Below are positions 29,622 to 38,278 of a DNA stretch of 56,333 nt, in pieces. The translations under genes were made by a program, and so were the position numbers. The stretch comes from Pedosphaera sp. (GTDB taxonomy: Bacteria; Verrucomicrobiota; Verrucomicrobiia; Limisphaerales; UBA1100): positions 1 through 56,333 of the forward strand of contig SIAW01000004.1 in the NCBI GenBank assembly GCA_009695465.1, written 5' to 3'. Each line of letters starts with the position of its first letter. The stretch's first letter is position 1. Under the pieces are notes generated by a model. It saw only the letters and a program-made list of their open reading frames with translations. It searched no databases and had not been told where the DNA came from.

Positions 29622-29989
29622 TGAAACCCAAAGAACTCGCCCAACTCTGCCGTGAATATGCCGACTCTAAAAAAGCCGAGGACATCGTTGTGCTCGATGT
29701 GAGCGGCGTGTCGAGCATCACGGATTATTTTGTCATCGCCACTGCCAACAGCGAGCCGCACGTCCGCTCCATCTGGCATGAGATTGTGGATCGTTTGCAG
29801 CGCGACCACGGCCAGCACGCGGGCAAACCTGAAGGCGCGCAGCAAAGTCAGTGGGTCGTCGTTGATTACTTCGACGTCGTGGTGCACGTGATGGTGAAGC
29901 GCGTGCGCGAGGAGTATAACTTGGAAGGGCTGTGGAACGATGCCACGGCGGTGCGCCCGCCCGTTCGCCGTCGCGCTAAGAAGTTGTGA
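29621..29989 (+). CDS. rsfS: Ribosome silencing factor
   Basis: Motifs KKAEDIVVLD, TDYFVIAT, W..VD..DVVVHV and R..Y.LE.LW. Follows nadD with a TAATG overlap. Confidence 0.94.
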   Translation: MKPKELAQLCREYADSKKAEDIVVLDVSGVSSITDYFVIATANSEPHVRSIWHEIVDRLQRDHGQHAGKPEGAQQSQWVVVDYFDVVVHVMVKRVREEYNLEGLWNDATAVRPPVRRRAKKL

Positions 29990-30563
29990 GCACGCCCAGC
30001 CGTCCCCGTGCGGACTTATTGCGCGCGCCGTTGCCCACGACCCACGCCGTGGCACCGAAGTAAATCAACAGCAACGCCGCCGCTGCGACAAAGCCCCCTT
30101 CAGAAACCCGGTGCCACTTCGCGTGCTCGGCCGTGGCCGCTGTGGTGGCCGCGCTGGCAGGAGTGGCCGGACGCGCCGCTGCAGTCTGCGGCGTGCGCTG
30201 AAAATATTCTGGATACTTCTGGCGCAGCAACGACTCCATCTTGGGAGCCAGCCATTGGCCGCCGCCGCCCACCAATCCACCGATAAGCAGCAGCAAGAGG
30301 AGGCGCCATTTGGGAAATGCAATCTTGCCAATCCCCCACTCCAACAGCAGCAACGCAAGCGCCGCGCCTGCGCAGATGTACTGCGCCAGATAACAGCGCT
30401 GAAAGAAAATCTGGCCGGCCTGTCCCTTCGCCGCCTTCTCCGGCAGCAGGCTGTTGACCTCCGGCGCGGTGAAAATCGTCATCGCCACGATGAACATAAA
30501 CACCGCGATGCCCAGCCATACGCCCGTGTTGAGCAGAGAAAGATAACGCAGCAAGTTCACCAT
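29976..30563 (-). CDS. DUF4149/TMEM205-like membrane protein
   Basis: WLG...F..A..IF...AGQIFF...Y...H..S pattern with 4 TM helices. Confidence 0.6.
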   Translation of the reverse strand: MVNLLRYLSLLNTGVWLGIAVFMFIVAMTIFTAPEVNSLLPEKAAKGQAGQIFFQRCYLAQYICAGAALALLLLEWGIGKIAFPKWRLLLLLLIGGLVGGGGQWLAPKMESLLRQKYPEYFQRTPQTAAARPATPASAATTAATAEHAKWHRVSEGGFVAAAALLLIYFGATAWVVGNGARNKSARGRLGVLTTS

Positions 30564-30663
30564 CGGGCCGCACGGTACGAGATGCCCGCCGGAGTGCCAA
30601 GCCCTGATTGGCGCGAGGTTTTGGATTGTCACAAGGCGGCCGGCAGTGGTTTACTACTCGCGG

Positions 30664-33600
30664 ATGGCGAACAAGGAGGCCACGGAGAAACCCGTACAGG
30701 AAAGCTATGGCGAAGTCGTCGGCATGGTTTTGTTTTTTCTAGCGGTGCTGCTGTTGCTGGCCCTTTTCTCTTTCGACAAACACGACCTCGCCTTCAACGG
30801 CACACAGGTCAACGCCGCGCGGCACAACCTCGTGGGCGTGGTGGGCGCGTGGGTGGCGCAGATTGCTTTTCTCGCGGTGGGCGCTTCAGCGTACCTGCTG
30901 CCGCCGCTGCTGCTGCTCTTCGCGCTGGCCGCATTTTTTGAAAAGCTGGAGGCGATGCGCCGGCGCTGGCCGTGGGCGGTGGTGTTGGTGCTCAGTTGCA
31001 CGGCGGCGCTGAGTTTGCATCACGGACCATTCGATGAACTGGCCCGCCGATTGGGCGCGACGGATCCGGGAGGCTTCATCGGCACGCTGCTCAACCGCTA
31101 CATCTTCATCAACGTCGGCACGGTCGGCGCCAGTATCATCCTCATCTGTCTGTACGGAGTGAGCCTGCTGTTCCTCACCCATTTTCGTTTGGTGGAATGG
31201 CTGGGAGAACGATGGACTGCGTGGCGCGCGCCCCAGGACGCAGCGGCCGCGCCGCTCACCGCGGACGAAGCAGCATTGTCCGAGCGCGCTCAGGCGTTGG
31301 CGCAGCAATATCGCGAGTTGCAGAAGGAATTCGAGAAGGCCAATCAGACGCTCGGAAATATTGTCGGCAACAGCACCACCATCGCGCCCATGGCCAATCC
31401 TGCTGATCCCGTCGGGCCAAGTCTGGGTGCGGATTTGAAGCCGGTGCCCGAGCCGACCGTGCGCGATCTGAGCATGCCCGTGTCAAAGAAGCCCGCGACG
31501 GATGGCCCCACGCGTCAGCTCGCGGCCATCATGTTCACCGACATCGCCGGCTACACGCGCTTGTCCAACCGCGACGAGAAGGCGGCGATGAAACTCATCA
31601 AGCAGCAGCGCAAATTGCTGCGGCCGATCGTGGAGGAGTTCGAGGGCGAATGGCTCAAGGAGATCGGCGACGGATTGCTGCTGAGTTTCCCCAGCTCGCT
31701 CAACGCGGTGAACTGCGCGGTGCGCATTCAAGAGGCGGCGCGCGCGGTGCCGCATCTGAACCTGCGCATCGGTGTGCATCAAGGCGACATCGTGCGCGAG
31801 GGCGGCGACATTTACGGCGACGGTGTGAACATCGCTTCGCGCATCGAAAAATACGCGCCGGTGGGCGGCATCGCCGTGTCCGAAAAAATCCAGCAGGACA
31901 TCTCCAGCCATCCGGAGATCAATCTGGAACTGCTCGGCGAATTTGAATTGGAAGGCGTGGATCAGCGTGTGGAGGTGTTCACGGTCACCTCCAATCTGAA
32001 AGATCCGCTGGACGAAACCAAGTTGGTCGAGCCGTCGGCACCCGCTGTTCCGGTGGAGGCTGTGGCAAAAGGCCCCGCCACGATGGAGGAAATATTGGGC
32101 ATCGTGCCGGTGAAGTTCAAAGTTAAAGCGAAATCCAAACCGCTGGCCGTGGCGGCCACGCCGTTGATCGGCAATTACCAACTGCCGCCGCGCGAGCTCT
32201 TGAAGGTGCCCGAGCCGAGCAAGATCCCTTCAGAAACCAAAGAGGAGATGATGGCCAACTCGCGCCTGATGCAGCAGACGCTGGCGCAGTTTGGCATCGA
32301 GGTCGCGATGGGCGACATCACTAAAGGGCCGACCATCACGCGCTACGAATTGCATCCGGCGCCCGGCGTGAAGCTGGAAAAGATTGTCGCCCTCTCCAAC
32401 AACATCGCTGCGGCGCTGCGCGCGGAGCGCATCAATATCCTCGCGCCAGTGCCCGGGAAAAGTTCCGTGGGCGTGGAAGTGGCCAACCGTTCCAAGTGCA
32501 TGGTGTCGATGCGCGACTTGCTGGAGTCCGACGAGTGGAGCAAGACCAAGGCCCGCATTCCCGTGGTCATCGGCAAGGACGTTTACGGCAACGCCATCAT
32601 CTCCGATCTGGCCGAGATGCCGCATCTGCTCATCGCCGGCGCGACGGGCGCGGGCAAGAGCGTCTGCATCAACACCATCATCGCCTCGCTGCTCTACCGC
32701 TTCTCGCCCGACCAACTGCGCTTGGTGATGATTGATCCCAAGGTGGTGGAGTTGCAGATGTACAACACCCTGCCGCATCTGGTCGTGCCGGTGGTCACCG
32801 ATCCCAAGAAGGTGATCCTCGCATTGCGCTGGGTGGTGTTGGAGATGGAGAAGCGCTACAAGATTTTCGCCAAGGTGGCCGTGAAGAACATCGCCGGTTT
32901 CAACACCCGCTCGCGCGACAAGGTTGTGCTTGCGGTCGAGCAGGACCTGCCGCTGTACGCCGACAAGGAGAAGGGCGACGCCAATTCCAGCGGATTCGCC
33001 GTGGAGGTGGACGAGGAAATTGTGGTGCCGCGCGAGGAGGAGATTCAGATTCCCGATCAGCTCAGCTACGTCGTCGTGGTCATTGATGAGTTGGCCGATC
33101 TGATGTTGTCTGCGCCGGCCGATGTGGAGATGGCCATCGCGCGCATCACGCAGATGGCGCGCGCGGCGGGCATCCACTGCATCGTGGCCACGCAGCGTCC
33201 CAGCGTGGATGTCATCACCGGCGTCATCAAAGCCAACATCCCCGCGCGCATCGCGTTTCAGGTGGCGTCGAAGGTGGATAGCCGCACGATCATTGACAAG
33301 ATGGGGGCCGAGAAATTGTTGGGCAAAGGCGACATGCTTTACATGCAGCCCTCCGCCGCGCAGCCGATACGCGCGCAGGGTGCGCTGGTGACCGATCAGG
33401 AAATCCAAGCCATCGTGGATTTCATCGCCAAGCAAGGGAAGCCTTCGTACGAGATGGACATTCACCAGCAACTCTCCAAGCCGGAAAATGAATTTGGGGC
33501 TGGCTCCAGCGGAGAGGACGAAGAGTTGATCAACAAGTGCATCGAGGTCATCCGCTCTGAGCAGAAGGCCAGCGTGTCGCTGCTGCAACGCCGGCTGCGT

Positions 33601-33735
33601 TTGGGCTACACCCGCGCGGCGCGCATCATGGATGATCTGCAAGAGCGCGGCATCGTCGGGCCCAACAAGGGCGCCGAGCCGCGTGACATCTTGATTGATC
33701 TCGACGTCGCCGCCAACTTGCCGGCCCGCCACTAG
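30664..33735 (+). CDS. ftsK: DNA translocase FtsK with an inserted class III nucleotidyl (adenylate) cyclase domain
   Basis: N-terminal multi-TM domain (N..G.VGA), alpha domain (GPTITRYE), Walker A GATGAGKS, MIDPK, Walker B VVIDELADLM, ATQRPS and gamma domain ASVSLLQRRLRLGYTRAARIMD. Cyclase domain at about aa 283-442. Confidence 0.96.
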   Translation: MANKEATEKPVQESYGEVVGMVLFFLAVLLLLALFSFDKHDLAFNGTQVNAARHNLVGVVGAWVAQIAFLAVGASAYLLPPLLLLFALAAFFEKLEAMRRRWPWAVVLVLSCTAALSLHHGPFDELARRLGATDPGGFIGTLLNRYIFINVGTVGASIILICLYGVSLLFLTHFRLVEWLGERWTAWRAPQDAAAAPLTADEAALSERAQALAQQYRELQKEFEKANQTLGNIVGNSTTIAPMANPADPVGPSLGADLKPVPEPTVRDLSMPVSKKPATDGPTRQLAAIMFTDIAGYTRLSNRDEKAAMKLIKQQRKLLRPIVEEFEGEWLKEIGDGLLLSFPSSLNAVNCAVRIQEAARAVPHLNLRIGVHQGDIVREGGDIYGDGVNIASRIEKYAPVGGIAVSEKIQQDISSHPEINLELLGEFELEGVDQRVEVFTVTSNLKDPLDETKLVEPSAPAVPVEAVAKGPATMEEILGIVPVKFKVKAKSKPLAVAATPLIGNYQLPPRELLKVPEPSKIPSETKEEMMANSRLMQQTLAQFGIEVAMGDITKGPTITRYELHPAPGVKLEKIVALSNNIAAALRAERINILAPVPGKSSVGVEVANRSKCMVSMRDLLESDEWSKTKARIPVVIGKDVYGNAIISDLAEMPHLLIAGATGAGKSVCINTIIASLLYRFSPDQLRLVMIDPKVVELQMYNTLPHLVVPVVTDPKKVILALRWVVLEMEKRYKIFAKVAVKNIAGFNTRSRDKVVLAVEQDLPLYADKEKGDANSSGFAVEVDEEIVVPREEEIQIPDQLSYVVVVIDELADLMLSAPADVEMAIARITQMARAAGIHCIVATQRPSVDVITGVIKANIPARIAFQVASKVDSRTIIDKMGAEKLLGKGDMLYMQPSAAQPIRAQGALVTDQEIQAIVDFIAKQGKPSYEMDIHQQLSKPENEFGAGSSGEDEELINKCIEVIRSEQKASVSLLQRRLRLGYTRAARIMDDLQERGIVGPNKGAEPRDILIDLDVAANLPARH
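31510..31989 (+). other. Class III adenylate/guanylate cyclase catalytic domain within the FtsK linker
   Basis: RQLAAIMFTDIAGYT...WLKEIGDGLL...LRIGVHQGD...DIYGDGVNIASRIE...GGIAVSE...ELEGV. Metal ligands D293 and D336, specificity residues K332 and D382, transition-state residues N389 and R393. Confidence 0.93.
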
Positions 33736-33780
33736 GCTTTTGGCTTTCCGACTCGTGTGGCGGCGGGTAATCATTCTGCC

Positions 33781-34500
33781 ATGACCACCATCGCGACCGA
33801 ACCCGCCTACAAAGTCTGGGCCGTGGACGATGTCGTGTACGGGCCCGTATCGCAGTCGGTGGTGCTGGAGTGGATCGCCGAACAGCGCATCGTGGCGGGC
33901 ATGTGGCTCTATCCCATGGCCAGCAAAAAGTGGCTGAAGGCCGGCGACCTGCCCGAGTTGCAGGAGACGCTGGCCAGCGCACTCGCTGCGGGATTGACCG
34001 CGCCCGTCGTCGTGTCGCCGCTGGTCGCAGGCGTGCCGGTGGGGGCGCTGCGCAAGGTGGCGATGCTCTCGGCGATGAACGATCAACAGTTGGGCCGCTT
34101 CGCGCAGTTCATGGAAATCGCCAAGGTGACGCAGTTCGAGCTGGTGGTGGAGCACGGCGATCCGGGCGATGCGATGTACGTGGTGCTGGCCGGTTCGCTG
34201 CGCGTGCGCCAGATGGTGGCCGGCAAAGAAACGGTGATCGCCACGTTGCGCGTCGGCGATGTGTTCGGCGAAATCTCGCTGTTCGATCAAGGCCCGCGCT
34301 CGGCCGATGTGTTGGCCAACGAAGACAGCACGCTGCTGGTCATCGGGGCAGATCGCTTTGTGGAGTTCACGCAGAAGATGCCCGAGGTGGCGCTCTCGCT
34401 GTTGCTGGCGATCAGCCGCACGATGGCCAGTCGCATCCGCGCGGACAACGAGCGGCACAAGCAGGACCTGCTCGTGTTGCAAAACGTGAAGCAGCACTGA
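33781..34500 (+). CDS. Cyclic-nucleotide-binding domain protein (GYF_2/DUF4339-like N-terminus plus cNMP domain, no HTH)
   Basis: N-terminal YGPVS...L.EW....RI...W pattern, GDPGDAMYVVLAG and phosphate-binding cassette FGEISLFDQGPRSADV. Protein ends after the C-helix. Confidence 0.9.
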   Translation: MTTIATEPAYKVWAVDDVVYGPVSQSVVLEWIAEQRIVAGMWLYPMASKKWLKAGDLPELQETLASALAAGLTAPVVVSPLVAGVPVGALRKVAMLSAMNDQQLGRFAQFMEIAKVTQFELVVEHGDPGDAMYVVLAGSLRVRQMVAGKETVIATLRVGDVFGEISLFDQGPRSADVLANEDSTLLVIGADRFVEFTQKMPEVALSLLLAISRTMASRIRADNERHKQDLLVLQNVKQH

Positions 34501-34514
34501 CGGGCGCGCGTGCG

Positions 34515-35306
34515 CTAGATCGTCAGTCGCTGGTTGTCCTCCACGAACGTGAAGGGGATTTTTCCAAGCTGCGATTGGGCCAGCCCTATCAGTTCAGCGC
34601 GGCGTTCACGCCATTTCCCACCGACATGCGTGAAGGCGATTTGCTTGATGGGTTTGTCCGCCAAAAATTGGAAGAGCTGCGCCGGCTCGCAATGCGCGAC
34701 TTCGCACAGCAACAGATCCAGCGGTTGCGCCACCAACGGATGCAGGTCGTGCAAGCCGCCGATGTCGCCGCTGTGGGCGATGCGTTTGCCTGCGCCTTCG
34801 ATCGCGATGCCGAACGCCTCAAATTTCTGCGGGTGTTTAGCACCGTGCGCCGCGCGCAGTCCCTCCAAGTGCGTCGAGTAATGCGGCGTGAGAATCAGCC
34901 CGTCGCCGGTGATGGGCGTCGCGCATTGCCACGGCTGCCAGTCCGTGGCGAAGGCCAGCAGCTCGGGGAAGATGTACGAGGCATTGAGCATCTGGCGCAC
35001 GGGCGCTTCGCCTTCGGCGGGCAGATGGATGGTCAACGGCTTTTTGCGGCCGAGCAACCAGAAGCCCTGCATCAACATGAAAATCCCGCCGATATGATCG
35101 CAGTGCAGATGGGTGATGAGAATGCGGTCAATGTCGTCGGCGCCCACGCCATGCGCGCGCAGTTGGCGCGTGGCGGGTTCGCCGCAGTCCACCAAGAGCG
35201 TGACGCCGCCGAGCCGGTAGAGGAAGGCCGAGTGATTGCGATCCGCGCTGGGATGACCGTCGCCGGTGCCCAGACAAGTCAGGGTTGCCGTGTCCATCGT
35301 GCTCAT
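34515..35306 (-). CDS. Metallo-beta-lactamase-fold hydrolase (ElaC/RNase Z-like, short), putative phosphodiesterase
   Basis: Motifs LGTGDG.P, LVDCGE, THLHCDH (HxHxDH), SGD, CEVAH and THV. 263 aa. Confidence 0.85.
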   Translation of the reverse strand: MSTMDTATLTCLGTGDGHPSADRNHSAFLYRLGGVTLLVDCGEPATRQLRAHGVGADDIDRILITHLHCDHIGGIFMLMQGFWLLGRKKPLTIHLPAEGEAPVRQMLNASYIFPELLAFATDWQPWQCATPITGDGLILTPHYSTHLEGLRAAHGAKHPQKFEAFGIAIEGAGKRIAHSGDIGGLHDLHPLVAQPLDLLLCEVAHCEPAQLFQFLADKPIKQIAFTHVGGKWRERRAELIGLAQSQLGKIPFTFVEDNQRLTI

Positions 35307-35446
35307 CGTTGTGGCGTGACCATGCGCAATGCCCGGACATTCTCTCTGACGCGCCGACCAAATCCAGCGCAAAACAAACGCACGCCTCAGCAACTTTGGG
35401 ATAACTTTTTGTTTTCTGACTTTGGCGAGGCCACTAATTTTTCAGC

Positions 35447-35956
35447 GTGACAAGTGTCGCTGAACAATTGCGCGAGACGCGCAAGCAACGCGGTTGGACG
35501 GTAGCCGATGTGATGGCCCGGACCAATCTCAAGGCCGAACAGATCCAGTGGCTGGAGTCTGGGCGCTGGGACGCGTTTGCTGCGCCGGCCTACGTGCGCG
35601 GCTTTGTGCGTTCTTACGCGCAGCAACTCAAGCTGCCGCTGCAGGAGTTGAGCGGCCTGCTCGACGCGGAGTTGGGGCAGACGGAAAAATTCCGCGAGCT
35701 GCCCGACGTGGCCCATGCGCCCAAGACGTTCCTCAATCGGCTGATGCTCGCCTCCTCGCGCGTGAACTGGAGAATCGCGCTGCCGGTGCTGGTGTTCCTG
35801 GCTTTGGTGGCGCTCACGTATGTCGGTGTCCAAGCTTGGCAACAGCGTCGCCCAACGGACCCGCTCAAAAATCTGGGCACGGGCATGATTGACTTGGACA
35901 AAAAACACACCGACGTGGATCGCCTGCCGCCGAGTCCGGTGCCCACGACCCGTTGA
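35447..35956 (+). CDS. rodZ: RodZ-like HTH membrane protein
   Basis: LRETR...LE.G...YVRGFVRSYA..L.L HTH pattern plus one TM helix, upstream of rimO-pgsA. Periplasmic part is short. Confidence 0.75.
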   Translation: MTSVAEQLRETRKQRGWTVADVMARTNLKAEQIQWLESGRWDAFAAPAYVRGFVRSYAQQLKLPLQELSGLLDAELGQTEKFRELPDVAHAPKTFLNRLMLASSRVNWRIALPVLVFLALVALTYVGVQAWQQRRPTDPLKNLGTGMIDLDKKHTDVDRLPPSPVPTTR

Positions 35957-36019
35957 TTGCGTCCGTCTGCGGTTTCCAAGGTTGATTGCGTCCCGCCCTT
36001 GGCCTACGCTCTGACCCCC

Positions 36020-37606
36020 GTGTCAGAAAATGGAAAACTTCCCACGTTGCGTGTGGGCATGATTTCACTGGGCTGCGCCAAAAATTTGGTGGATGCCGAG
36101 GTCATGCTCGGCTCGTTGCTGGCCGGCGGCGTGGAGATCACCAACGATCCGGCCAACGCCGACGCGCTGATCATCAACACCTGCTCGTTCATCGGCGAGG
36201 CGCAGGAGGAAAGCGTGGACACCATTTTGGAATCGGCAGAGGTGCGCGCCGCGCGCCAGCCCGGGCAGGCGATCATTGTCTCGGGCTGTCTGCCGCAGCG
36301 GTTCCGCGAGGAGTTGCCCAAGTTGTTGCCGGAGGTGGACGCGTTCATGGGCGTGGATCAAGTGAGCGAGGTCGCGGGCATCGTGCGCAGCGCGGTGGCG
36401 CGGCGTCGTCAGATCGCGACCGTTCCGAGTGTCCCTCTTTCGCGCCGCAGGAAAATCGAACTCCCCGCAGTCGCACCCACTGTGCCGACTGCGCCGATCC
36501 ATCAAGTGACCGTGCGGCCCAAGTACGTGCCGGACTTTGCCACGCCACGCTTTCGTCTCACCCCGCGCCATTTTGCGTATGTGAAGATTGCCGAGGGCTG
36601 CAATCATCCGTGCAGCTTTTGCACCATCCCGAGGATGCGCGGCGGGCACCGCAGCCGCACGCAGGCTGATGTGGTGGCCGAGGTGCGGCAACTGCTCAAG
36701 GAGGGTGTCAAAGAGATCAATCTCATCTCGCAGGACGCTACCTATTACGGAATGGATCTGCGGCCGGATCATCGGCCGGGCATTTCCTCGCCCGCCAAAT
36801 TCACCGCCGCCGCCGGCGCGTTGACGGCCGACGCCACGACCTTGTGCACCTTGTTGCGCGAACTCAATGCACTGCCCGGCAAATTCTGGATTCGTTTGCT
36901 CTACACTCATCCGGCGCACTGGACCGATGAATTGATCCGCACCATTGCCGAGTGTCCGAAGGTGGCGCGTTACGTGGACATGCCTTTGCAGCACATCCAC
37001 GATCTGATGCTCGAACGCATGCGGCGCGAGACCGACAGCCGGCACATCCGCGATCTCATCGCGCGCATCCGCGCCGGCGTCCCGGGCATCGCGTTGCGCA
37101 CGACGTTCATCGTGGGGTTCCCCGGCGAGACGGAGCGGTGTTTTGAGACGCTCTTGGATTTCATTGGTGAAACAAAGTTTGAGCGGCTGGGCATCTTTGC
37201 CTATTCGCGCGAGGAGAGCACGCGCGCCGGCGGCATGCGCGGGCAATGCGCCGAGGCGACCAAACAGGAGCGGCGCCAACGCGCGATGGCGGCGCAACGC
37301 GAGGTGTCGCGCGCGATGGGCGCGGCGATGGTGGGCCGCCAGTTGAACGTGTTGGTGGAAGGCACGGCGGAAGGTGCCGCTGCTGAATCTGCCGAGGTGC
37401 GCTCGTGGGAGCACGGGTTGATCCGCCAATCTGCGCCGCGCCAAAAGGCGTTGGGCGCTGGAAAATATCTGGTCGCGCGCGGCGAGTCTGATGCGCCGGA
37501 CATCGATGGCCGTGTGTATGTGCGCGGCGATTTATCCGTGGGCGAATTCGCCGGGGTGCGGGTGGTGGGCCACACTGATTACGATTTGATCGCCGAACCG
37601 ATCTAG
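36020..37606 (+). CDS. rimO: Ribosomal protein S12 methylthiotransferase
   Basis: Motifs SLGCAKNLVD, NTCSFI, YVKIAEGCNHPCSFCTIP, RTTFIVGFPGET and DAPDIDG (TRAM domain). Confidence 0.94.
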   Translation: MSENGKLPTLRVGMISLGCAKNLVDAEVMLGSLLAGGVEITNDPANADALIINTCSFIGEAQEESVDTILESAEVRAARQPGQAIIVSGCLPQRFREELPKLLPEVDAFMGVDQVSEVAGIVRSAVARRRQIATVPSVPLSRRRKIELPAVAPTVPTAPIHQVTVRPKYVPDFATPRFRLTPRHFAYVKIAEGCNHPCSFCTIPRMRGGHRSRTQADVVAEVRQLLKEGVKEINLISQDATYYGMDLRPDHRPGISSPAKFTAAAGALTADATTLCTLLRELNALPGKFWIRLLYTHPAHWTDELIRTIAECPKVARYVDMPLQHIHDLMLERMRRETDSRHIRDLIARIRAGVPGIALRTTFIVGFPGETERCFETLLDFIGETKFERLGIFAYSREESTRAGGMRGQCAEATKQERRQRAMAAQREVSRAMGAAMVGRQLNVLVEGTAEGAAAESAEVRSWEHGLIRQSAPRQKALGAGKYLVARGESDAPDIDGRVYVRGDLSVGEFAGVRVVGHTDYDLIAEPI

Positions 37607-37612
37607 CCCGCC

Positions 37613-38278
37613 ATGAATCTGCCCAACAAAATCACGACCTCGCGATTTTTCATCACGGTGATTTTCGTGGTGGTGATGCTGTGGGAATTTCCGCACCACT
37701 ATTCGGTGGCCGCCGCGCTCTTTTTCTTGGGCGGCCTGTCGGACATCGCCGATGGCGAAATCGCGCGTCGTCGCAATCTCAAGACCGACTTCGGCGTGTT
37801 GATGGATCCGTTGATTGACAAGATCATGGTCTGCGCCGGTTTCATCATGTTGATCGCCGCGCCCACGCCCCCGGCGATGGCGCAGGCCATTGCGGCGCTG
37901 GGATTGCCGCACTGGCTGCAGATACCCGGGCCGACGTTGCTGATGCCCGCGTGGATGGTGATCATCATCGTCGCGCGCGAACTGGCGATCACCGGGCTGC
38001 GCTTGTTGGCGGCGAACAACCAAGTCGTGCTCGCCGCCGAATCCATCGGCAAACGGAAGACCAATCTGCAGGTCACCGCTGTCATCGCCATTTTGATTTG
38101 CGTCAGTTATCCGGATTGGGGCGCGGGCGCGCGCAGTTTTTTTGACGCCAAGGTGGGAGTGCTGCCGTGGTCGCTGTGGTTCACACTTTTGGTCACGTGG
38201 GCAGCCGTCGCGCTGACGATGGTCTCGGGCATCCACTATCTCTGGGGCAACCGCGCGCTCTTCTTGAAGGACATGTAG
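37613..38278 (+). CDS. pgsA: CDP-diacylglycerol--glycerol-3-phosphate 3-phosphatidyltransferase
   Basis: MNLPN start, D..DG.IAR....TDFG..MDP..DK motif and RELAITGLR. Confidence 0.93.
   Translation: MNLPNKITTSRFFITVIFVVVMLWEFPHHYSVAAALFFLGGLSDIADGEIARRRNLKTDFGVLMDPLIDKIMVCAGFIMLIAAPTPPAMAQAIAALGLPHWLQIPGPTLLMPAWMVIIIVARELAITGLRLLAANNQVVLAAESIGKRKTNLQVTAVIAILICVSYPDWGAGARSFFDAKVGVLPWSLWFTLLVTWAAVALTMVSGIHYLWGNRALFLKDM

Follow-up and report, generated by a model that had tools for sequence, protein, structure and literature searches.

A class III cyclase homology domain in the linker of FtsK, encoded beside a candidate cyclic nucleotide receptor and a candidate phosphodiesterase, in a family of aquatic Verrucomicrobia

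The FtsK/SpoIIIE DNA translocases, among them E. coli FtsK (PRK10263), consist of a 4TM membrane anchor, a linker, an alpha/beta motor with a Walker A motif and a gamma domain; the N-terminal domain targets the septum, and the motors act as hexamers on DNA. Class III nucleotide cyclases, in turn, have active sites that are shared between the two subunits of a dimer. DisA of Bacillus, a DNA-scanning diadenylate cyclase, has the DAC fold, produces c-di-AMP and contains neither a translocase motor nor a membrane anchor; its likeness to the protein described here is functional and conceptual only, as a DNA-handling protein whose messenger synthesis could report chromosome status. To our knowledge, the signal telling the division machinery that the chromosome has been cleared is largely unresolved outside a few model species. 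A nucleotidyl-cyclase fold in a membrane-anchored division protein has a precedent in AdvA of Acinetobacter baumannii, which is described in a preprint as a divisome protein with a highly divergent cyclase-like domain that lacks catalytic and dimerisation sites (bioRxiv 10.64898/2026.04.03.716176). Here we describe FtsK-cyclase, an FtsK whose linker contains a class III cyclase homology domain (CHD) and which is encoded in a 56,333-nucleotide stretch of DNA from Pedosphaera sp. (Verrucomicrobiota; Verrucomicrobiia; Limisphaerales; UBA1100; contig SIAW01000004.1 of assembly GCA_009695465.1), hereafter the window.

The original prediction of one uninterrupted 1023-aa frame, in which a cyclase domain separates an FtsK membrane domain from an FtsK motor, was correct in domain order and coordinates, as judged from the open reading frame (ORF) list and Pfam (Table 1). 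The frame opens at a GTG in the ORF list (30646..33735, +, 1029 aa) and gives 1023 aa from ATG 30664, the position at which homologues begin in a 30-sequence alignment. A 1698-nt RNA-library contig (run X9) starts at 30661, three bases ahead of this ATG, which is a hint only, as contigs cannot define transcript ends. All FtsK matches (4TM, alpha, motor and gamma) exceeded their own Pfam cut-offs, the motor translation contains VVVIDELADL alongside GATGAGKS, and PRK10263 of NCBIfam covered aa 489-1008 (3.5e-135). The predicted cyclase was matched by Guanylate_cyc (PF00211) at aa 287-440 (1.4e-13), with 51.2 bits against a curated Pfam cut-off of 21.9, and the same segment matched the solved class III cyclases 3mr7 (2.5e-23), Ma1120 (3.7e-19) and Rv1900c (4e-12). 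The genome (2.57 Mb in 130 contigs, 90.6% complete) holds one FtsK, two cyclase domains and one cNMP_binding match, and a search with the FtsK_SpoIIIE profile found no second FtsK paralogue in it. By this profile search FtsK-cyclase is the cell's single FtsK DNA translocase, and its status as sole copy indirectly supports a housekeeping role in division or segregation.

The fusion is real and family-wide. When aa 200-520 were searched against a collection of 5.8 billion proteins, PF00211 and FtsK domains (PF01580) occurred together in 48 of the 120 best matches listed (P0002-P0049, 44-99% identity), the other 72 being non-FtsK proteins with an N-terminal cyclase domain. The 48 fusion clusters stem from NCBI, JGI, ENA, Logan and Tara, and those that are named are metagenome-assembled genomes of Verrucomicrobiales or Verrucomicrobiota; in public databases the fusion proteins sit under generic names. 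The window's family is one of aquatic Verrucomicrobia, with records titled Verrucomicrobiales, Pedosphaera or Limisphaerales, and the CHD lies inside ftsK in 23 of its 24 other genomes (five genera), the exception (G009) being 69% complete and without any ftsK match. The stretch 31200-32300 is present in public runs of nine freshwater or lake metagenome studies. Contigs from RNA libraries span 30661-32358 and also the point where ftsK gives way to the next gene. In two other studies, DNA contigs extend over 30400-32358 without gaps and differ from the window at 10 letters. Because these independent DNA contigs cover that interval, both junctions of the domain are bridged, which settles the doubt raised with the original prediction over a chimeric assembly: the fusion is genuine. 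An artefact, in the form of a chimeric contig or of two genes called as one, has a negligible probability against the single stop-free frame, the 48 clusters from several sources, the 23 of 24 family genomes and the gapless contigs over both junctions, and chimeric assembly was rejected on these grounds; nothing in its favour was found beyond the origin of the window in a metagenome.

Beyond the family the domain was absent from FtsK in the genomes searched. The FtsKs of 16 of 16 other families in the order (one genome each, 843-1004 aa long) aligned only at about aa 1-290 and 440-1015, the five of these that were scanned by Pfam had the plain four-domain architecture without a cyclase, and no match spanning CHD and alpha domain was found in 200 genomes sampled evenly across the phylum. 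Full-text literature searching found no description of an FtsK-cyclase fusion, in agreement with the earlier statement that none was known; literature pairing "FtsK" with "adenylate cyclase" appears, from titles and term counts, to be mostly two-hybrid methods. FtsK-cyclase belongs by its profile matches to known kinds on both sides, the FtsK family and PF00211, and their combination appears to be an undescribed fusion in the literature searched.

Whereas the linker of the 16 sister families is a short spacer with two motifs, that of the fusion proteins contains a folded 160-aa enzyme domain. The first motif has the form LGADLxPVPEPxVRDLS, the core of which is present in 11 of 13 outgroup FtsKs (L021-L031, L033, L034), and the second, also present in outgroup FtsK linkers, has the form A-T-x-x-I-L-G. 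The fusion proteins keep both, one on each side of the CHD, and since fusions and outgroups share the two motifs, the domain entered the linker between motifs that are older than itself and shared across the order. This insertion appears to have happened in the ancestor of one family. The motifs themselves look like docking sites for some partner, independent of the cyclase. A full-length AlphaFold2 model of FtsK-cyclase (mean pLDDT 49.1, pTM 0.28; aa 230-284 and 447-524 low-confidence) was too poor for a fold search or for domain contacts and served only for confidence limits and for the helix at aa 200-231, which together with the CHD was its best-defined part (pLDDT blocks 70-84 in the helix). 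By its sequence this helix is possibly a coiled coil; about 50 poorly conserved residues and one conserved motif separate it from the CHD.

The CHD shares its fold and canonical residue set with Ma1120 of M. avium, 3mr7 and the mycobacterial Cya/Rv1625c type and, like Cya, is membrane-tethered with a helix ahead of the domain; membrane-anchored cyclases of this class are its nearest functional analogues. The six residues named in the original prediction were found at the positions given there, namely the metal-binding Asp D293 and D336, the substrate pair K332 and D382 and the transition-state pair N389 and R393; they are invariant in the 30-sequence alignment and, together with a further conserved residue, R368, identical in 48 of 48 fusion domains. 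K332, D382 and R393 align with K101, D157 and R168 of Ma1120, an active adenylate cyclase in which mutations of K101 and D157 are reported to shift the enzyme from ATP towards GTP, and for which R168 is named as the conserved transition-state Arg, with no R168 mutant reported in that source (PMC4215837). This alignment agrees with the predicted Lys/Asp pair typical of adenylate cyclases. The CHD is under strong purifying selection and is conserved like the motor: mean identity is 0.75 in the CHD and 0.79 in the motor compared with 0.26 and 0.39 in the flanking linkers, and the CHD dN/dS of 0.044 was the lowest of seven regions with a defined value in comparison with a same-genus orthologue, the only pair that is reliable for this ratio because dS is near saturation in more distant ones.

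The nearest sequence relatives of the domain are proteins of Marinimicrobia, Fidelibacterota and Verrucomicrobia with an N-terminal cyclase (aa ~1-170) followed by TPR, kinase or WD40 parts, which have 50-68% identity to the query region over about half of it, corresponding to the CHD, and share the catalytic residues. In a FastTree phylogeny of 48 fusion and 72 nearest non-fusion domains, from which the window's own protein (P0002) was left out, the fusion CHDs formed one clade (support 0.949). Besides K430E/D/Q, considered below, P427F, D387G and C440T are fixed in this separate clade, and K306, K310, K313 and H364 are clade-specific conserved surface residues.

The gene following ftsK encodes a GYF_2 plus cyclic nucleotide-binding (CNB) protein and begins 45 nt past the ftsK stop, counting from ATG 33781 (the database gene call); an alternative GTG start at 33757 would make it 247 aa. 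Its CNB domain matched PF00027 (6.5e-21), with PKA- and PKG-type CNB domains as top matches in the Protein Data Bank (PDB), and in its phosphate-binding cassette G171, R181, S182 and A183 are invariant, with E172 present in 15 of 16 family members. GYF_2 was matched by 14 of the 16 members (best E 3.5e-6). Domain scans found only GYF_2 and cNMP_binding in this protein, with no DNA-binding domain, and the CRP model matched it at model positions 9-136 only, the cNMP-binding part. A reading as a CRP/FNR transcription factor was rejected, there being no C-terminal helix-turn-helix, and because it has no DNA-binding domain the CNB protein must signal via protein contacts. Prediction of a complex between FtsK aa 225-500 (30 alignment rows) and the CNB protein (16 rows) gave a score of 0.00 twice, the mark being 0.32, and was counted neither way. 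A scan of 30300-35600 returned no promoter-like site and five terminator-like sites against 4.9 expected, none of them between ftsK and the CNB gene, a result to be read with the total at expectation; tRNA and Rfam scans of the whole window gave no matches.

Convergent with the CNB gene, and 14 nt from it, lies a gene for a metallo-beta-lactamase-fold (MBL) hydrolase matching PF12706 (5.4e-16), in which H63, H65, D67 and H68 of the HxHxDH motif are invariant in 44 sequences. For the model of this protein (pLDDT 93.6) the closest superpositions were with 1zkp, an ELAC homologue from B. anthracis, and with YhfI of B. subtilis (target-normalised TM-scores 0.82-0.85); 1zkp, YhfI and 8gyg filled Foldseek ranks 1-10, RNase Z began at rank 12 and Apyc1 stood at rank 24. 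Two B. subtilis MBL phosphodiesterases, YhfI and a second one, are reported to prefer cAMP and cGMP strongly (PMC9117128), and the PF12706 "atypical class II" enzymes are described as including the cAMP phosphodiesterases Rv1339 of M. tuberculosis and CpdA of C. glutamicum (PMC9293780). The MBL protein shares PF12706 and HxHxDH with YhfI, Rv1339 and CpdA and is, judging from the modelled fold, likely a YhfI-like cNMP phosphodiesterase that degrades cAMP, although its identity to these enzymes is only 18-20%, it has a weak N-terminal similarity to RNase Z, and the NCBIfam model cyc_nuc_deg_phdiest gave it 27 bits (2e-6), a weak match given a cut-off of 400.

A cyclase, a CNB protein and an MBL enzyme together also recall Pycsar, and FtsK-cyclase might be an active cyclase with another product (cGMP, cCMP or cUMP) that forms, with the CNB protein and an Apyc1-like MBL enzyme, a Pycsar-like defence or other signalling system. 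PADLOC gave weak matches of the CHD to PycC (24.6 bits) and of its neighbour to the CNB part of PycTIR, and the best PDB sequence match of the MBL protein was Apyc1 (1.3e-11), over the N-terminal 70 residues only. We consider this reading very improbable, since the K332/D382 pair is of the adenylate cyclase type and aligns with the tested pair of Ma1120, the CNB protein carries no TIR, membrane or other killing domain, the cyclase resides in the cell's only FtsK, and the MBL fold is nearer to 1zkp and YhfI, which prefers cAMP and cGMP, than to Apyc1. Membership in a Pycsar anti-phage system was rejected, the PADLOC matches being weak and generic and the CNB protein having no effector domain.

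Among the genomes searched, no family other than the one with the fusion has the CNB/MBL pair adjoining ftsK. In 22 of the 24 other family genomes the CNB gene comes next after ftsK, the exceptions being G003, where both genes lie at the ends of contigs, and G009, which has neither; 23 of 24 have the MBL gene adjoining the CNB gene. The order cytidylyltransferase, ftsK-cyclase, CNB, MBL, HTH_25 is common to seven longer loci that represent all five genera, and it is followed, where the fetched locus extends far enough, by miaB and/or a pgsA-like gene. Homologues of the CNB protein occur in 10 of the 16 other families (29-57% identity; nine full-length, one partial) and of the MBL protein in six of 16; in these outgroups neither homologue adjoins ftsK and the two lie on different contigs, the nearest case being an MBL gene about 3.3 kb upstream of ftsK in G033. 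Relatives without the insert have the same order of ftsK, RodZ-like gene and miaB, and as HTH_25 directly follows ftsK in two of 13 outgroup loci, the CNB/MBL cassette looks inserted. In the simplest history, the family's ancestor would have gained both the CHD and, between ftsK and the RodZ-like gene, the cassette. A donor operon, with a stand-alone cyclase beside a CNB orthologue, was not found around nine outgroup CNB genes (10 neighbours by Pfam), the neighbours of which include arginyl-tRNA synthetase (three loci), a Na/H exchanger-CNB protein and a REC-MBL protein.

Two of these outgroup neighbourhoods are of separate interest. In G029 a GYF_2-CNB orthologue directly follows the Na+/H+ exchanger-CNB fusion (L043:8685-10445, -), a second cNMP-linked neighbourhood for the GYF_2-CNB receptor family. 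In G032 a GYF_2-CNB orthologue is convergent with a 484-aa fusion of a response regulator and an MBL domain (L035:8685-10139, -); this protein has the same fold and relative position as the window's MBL protein, and its candidacy as an orthologue was rejected (BLASTP E 0.008).

The architecture and the linked genes make it moderately probable that the locus encodes an FtsK-anchored cAMP module, in which synthesis, sensing and degradation would be carried out by three neighbouring gene products. Since a class III cyclase needs a dimer to complete its active sites, the membrane-tethered CHDs would depend on clustering, being inactive as monomers and making cAMP once FtsK molecules gather. They might be brought together either at the septum, where the N-terminal domains cluster, or on DNA, where the motors assemble into hexamers. 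The CNB protein would read the cAMP and relay it by protein-protein contact via GYF_2, and the MBL enzyme would reset the signal by hydrolysing cAMP. An extended and rather unlikely form of this scheme is an assembly-gated source, in which CHDs crippled on their own by the exchange of Lys for an acidic residue would become active, by dimerising, inside the FtsK oligomer at the closing septum, maybe with a basic residue supplied in trans from an adjacent subunit or a partner, and a local cAMP pulse at each division or chromosome clearing would be read by the GYF_2-CNB protein and erased by the MBL enzyme, acting as a segregation-division checkpoint. The acidic residue at the Lys position discussed next would leave room for such an in-trans requirement.

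Several observations weigh against the cAMP module. Foremost among them, the C-terminal hairpin Lys found in 71 of the 72 nearest non-FtsK cyclase domains is replaced in all 48 fusions, residue 430 being E in 32, D in 14 and Q in two. In alignments, E430 takes the place of the K in the "ELKG" of Ma1120 and in the "VKG" of mycobacterial Cya (5o5k), and from the motif position and a numbering estimate on 1wc0 alignment ranges we infer that it is the equivalent of Lys1065 of AC2-C2 (Lys1184 of CyaC), a residue that is reported to coordinate the ATP beta and gamma phosphates and possibly to aid the first catalytic step (PMC9223806; see also PMC3591389). Cyclase activity could on this account be low or lost. 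The two other parts of the scheme also have weaknesses: the MBL protein is the genome's best RNase Z-like match (about 92-95 bits against a cut-off of 293, model positions 2-105), which makes a tRNA or RNA role a candidate, and the only other cyclase in the genome, a 684-aa HAMP plus class III cyclase protein on a different contig (G000:C18:16400-16852; L002:1378-3432, -), could feed the CNB protein, so that two cyclases appear to share a single CNB receptor. As the CNB family predates the fusion and is unlinked from ftsK elsewhere, its member here need not be dedicated to FtsK. Gene adjacency is correlative, the RNA-library contigs are no proof of transcription or of a single transcript, and the family genomes are kin, so that the counts of conservation and linkage are non-independent and represent a single event, or a few, with later retention. 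Identity of the MBL protein as RNase Z was rejected, the match being far below threshold and confined to the N-terminal part.

The replaced Lys is also the main argument for the chief rival reading, that of the CHD as a pseudo-enzyme, a dimerisation or docking module that would aid assembly of FtsK or the divisome and make no cyclic nucleotide, in the manner of AdvA, which the same preprint reports to bind ZipA (10.64898/2026.04.03.716176). Charge is reversed or lost at this inferred phosphate-binding position in 48 of 48 fusions, the residue varies between E, D and Q as though free of constraint, and K306, K310, K313 and H364 could make a binding face. We regard this reading as doubtful. AdvA, as described, is without the canonical catalytic and dimerisation sites, whereas the FtsK CHD keeps the metal Asp, the Lys/Asp and Asn/Arg pairs and R368 in all 48 fusions and has receptor and phosphodiesterase genes attached; invariant residues with a dN/dS of 0.044 are hard to explain without nucleotide and metal chemistry; and genes for a CNB receptor and a YhfI-like phosphodiesterase stand beside ftsK in exactly the family that carries the fusion.

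The balance of these residues qualifies the original description of the cyclase as apparently intact: a conserved FtsK with a class III CHD in its linker, with all six canonical residues kept, stands, but "intact" is too strong for a domain whose hairpin Lys has given way to E, D or Q throughout. By sequence, the protein has the six residues that define class III adenylate cyclases and departs from them in the conserved phosphate-binding Lys, and it differs from Ma1120 and Cya both in this residue and in the whole DNA motor that follows the domain. Keeping six canonical residues and one further Arg, and short of a single auxiliary phosphate ligand, the domain probably retains catalysis; because every fusion replaces the conserved Lys, the predicted catalysis is likely and not assured. 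The clade-wide replacement suggests altered, weaker, or partner-dependent and conditional catalysis.

Around the core genes, a divergent gene for a DUF4149 membrane protein (29976-30632, -) lies immediately upstream of ftsK in the window; tblastn places it next to ftsK in L044, L046 and L050, three of the seven longer loci of the family (34-69% identity). Downstream, 35447-38278 holds the HTH_25 RodZ-like gene, a MiaB-type radical-SAM methylthiotransferase gene and a pgsA-like phosphatidyltransferase gene, of which at least the RodZ-like and MiaB genes hold their position beside ftsK in some outgroups.

Table 1. Positions in the window of ftsK-cyclase, its domains and motifs, and the genes downstream (aa, amino acid positions in the encoded protein)
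Feature	Coordinates	Strand	Remarks
ftsK-cyclase gene	30664..33735	+	1023 aa + stop; sole FtsK_SpoIIIE match in 90.6%-complete genome
FtsK_4TM membrane domain, aa 16-179	30709..31200	+	Pfam 5.7e-29
Long helix, possible coiled coil, aa 200-231	31261..31356	+	right after membrane domain; predicted model
Linker motif 1, aa 254-270 (LGADLKPVPEPTVRDLS)	31423..31473	+	shared with FtsKs elsewhere in the order
Class III CHD, aa 283-443	31510..31992	+	Pfam match 287-440; D293, D336, K332, D382, N389, R393, R368
Codon of E430, hairpin Lys position	31951..31953	+	E/D/Q in 48/48 fusions, K in 71/72 nearest non-FtsK domains
Linker motif 2, aa 472-479 (ATMEEILG)	32077..32100	+	related motifs in outgroup FtsK linkers
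FtsK alpha domain, aa 507-608	32182..32487	+	Pfam
FtsK/SpoIIIE motor (beta) domain, aa 616-848	32509..33207	+	Walker A GATGAGKS; Pfam 1.3e-64
FtsK gamma domain, aa 951-1011	33514..33696	+	Pfam 2.3e-24
GYF_2 + cNMP-binding protein, 239 aa from ATG 33781	33781..34500	+	only cNMP_binding match in genome
MBL-fold hydrolase, 260 aa, HxHxDH	34515..35297	-	convergent with CNB gene; candidate cAMP phosphodiesterase
HTH_25 (RodZ-like) gene	35447..35956	+	ancestral context; directly after ftsK in two outgroup genomes

In this family a messenger-synthase domain is physically built into the protein that clears the chromosome, with the sole recognisable receptor and the likely degrading enzyme encoded alongside. 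Were the domain inactive, it would represent a second independent recruitment of the cyclase fold to the divisome after AdvA, caught early, with the catalytic residues still present. If it is active, cAMP would serve in these organisms as a division- or segregation-linked signal and not as the usual nutrient signal, and the domain together with its neighbouring genes suggests such a cAMP signal tied to cell division.

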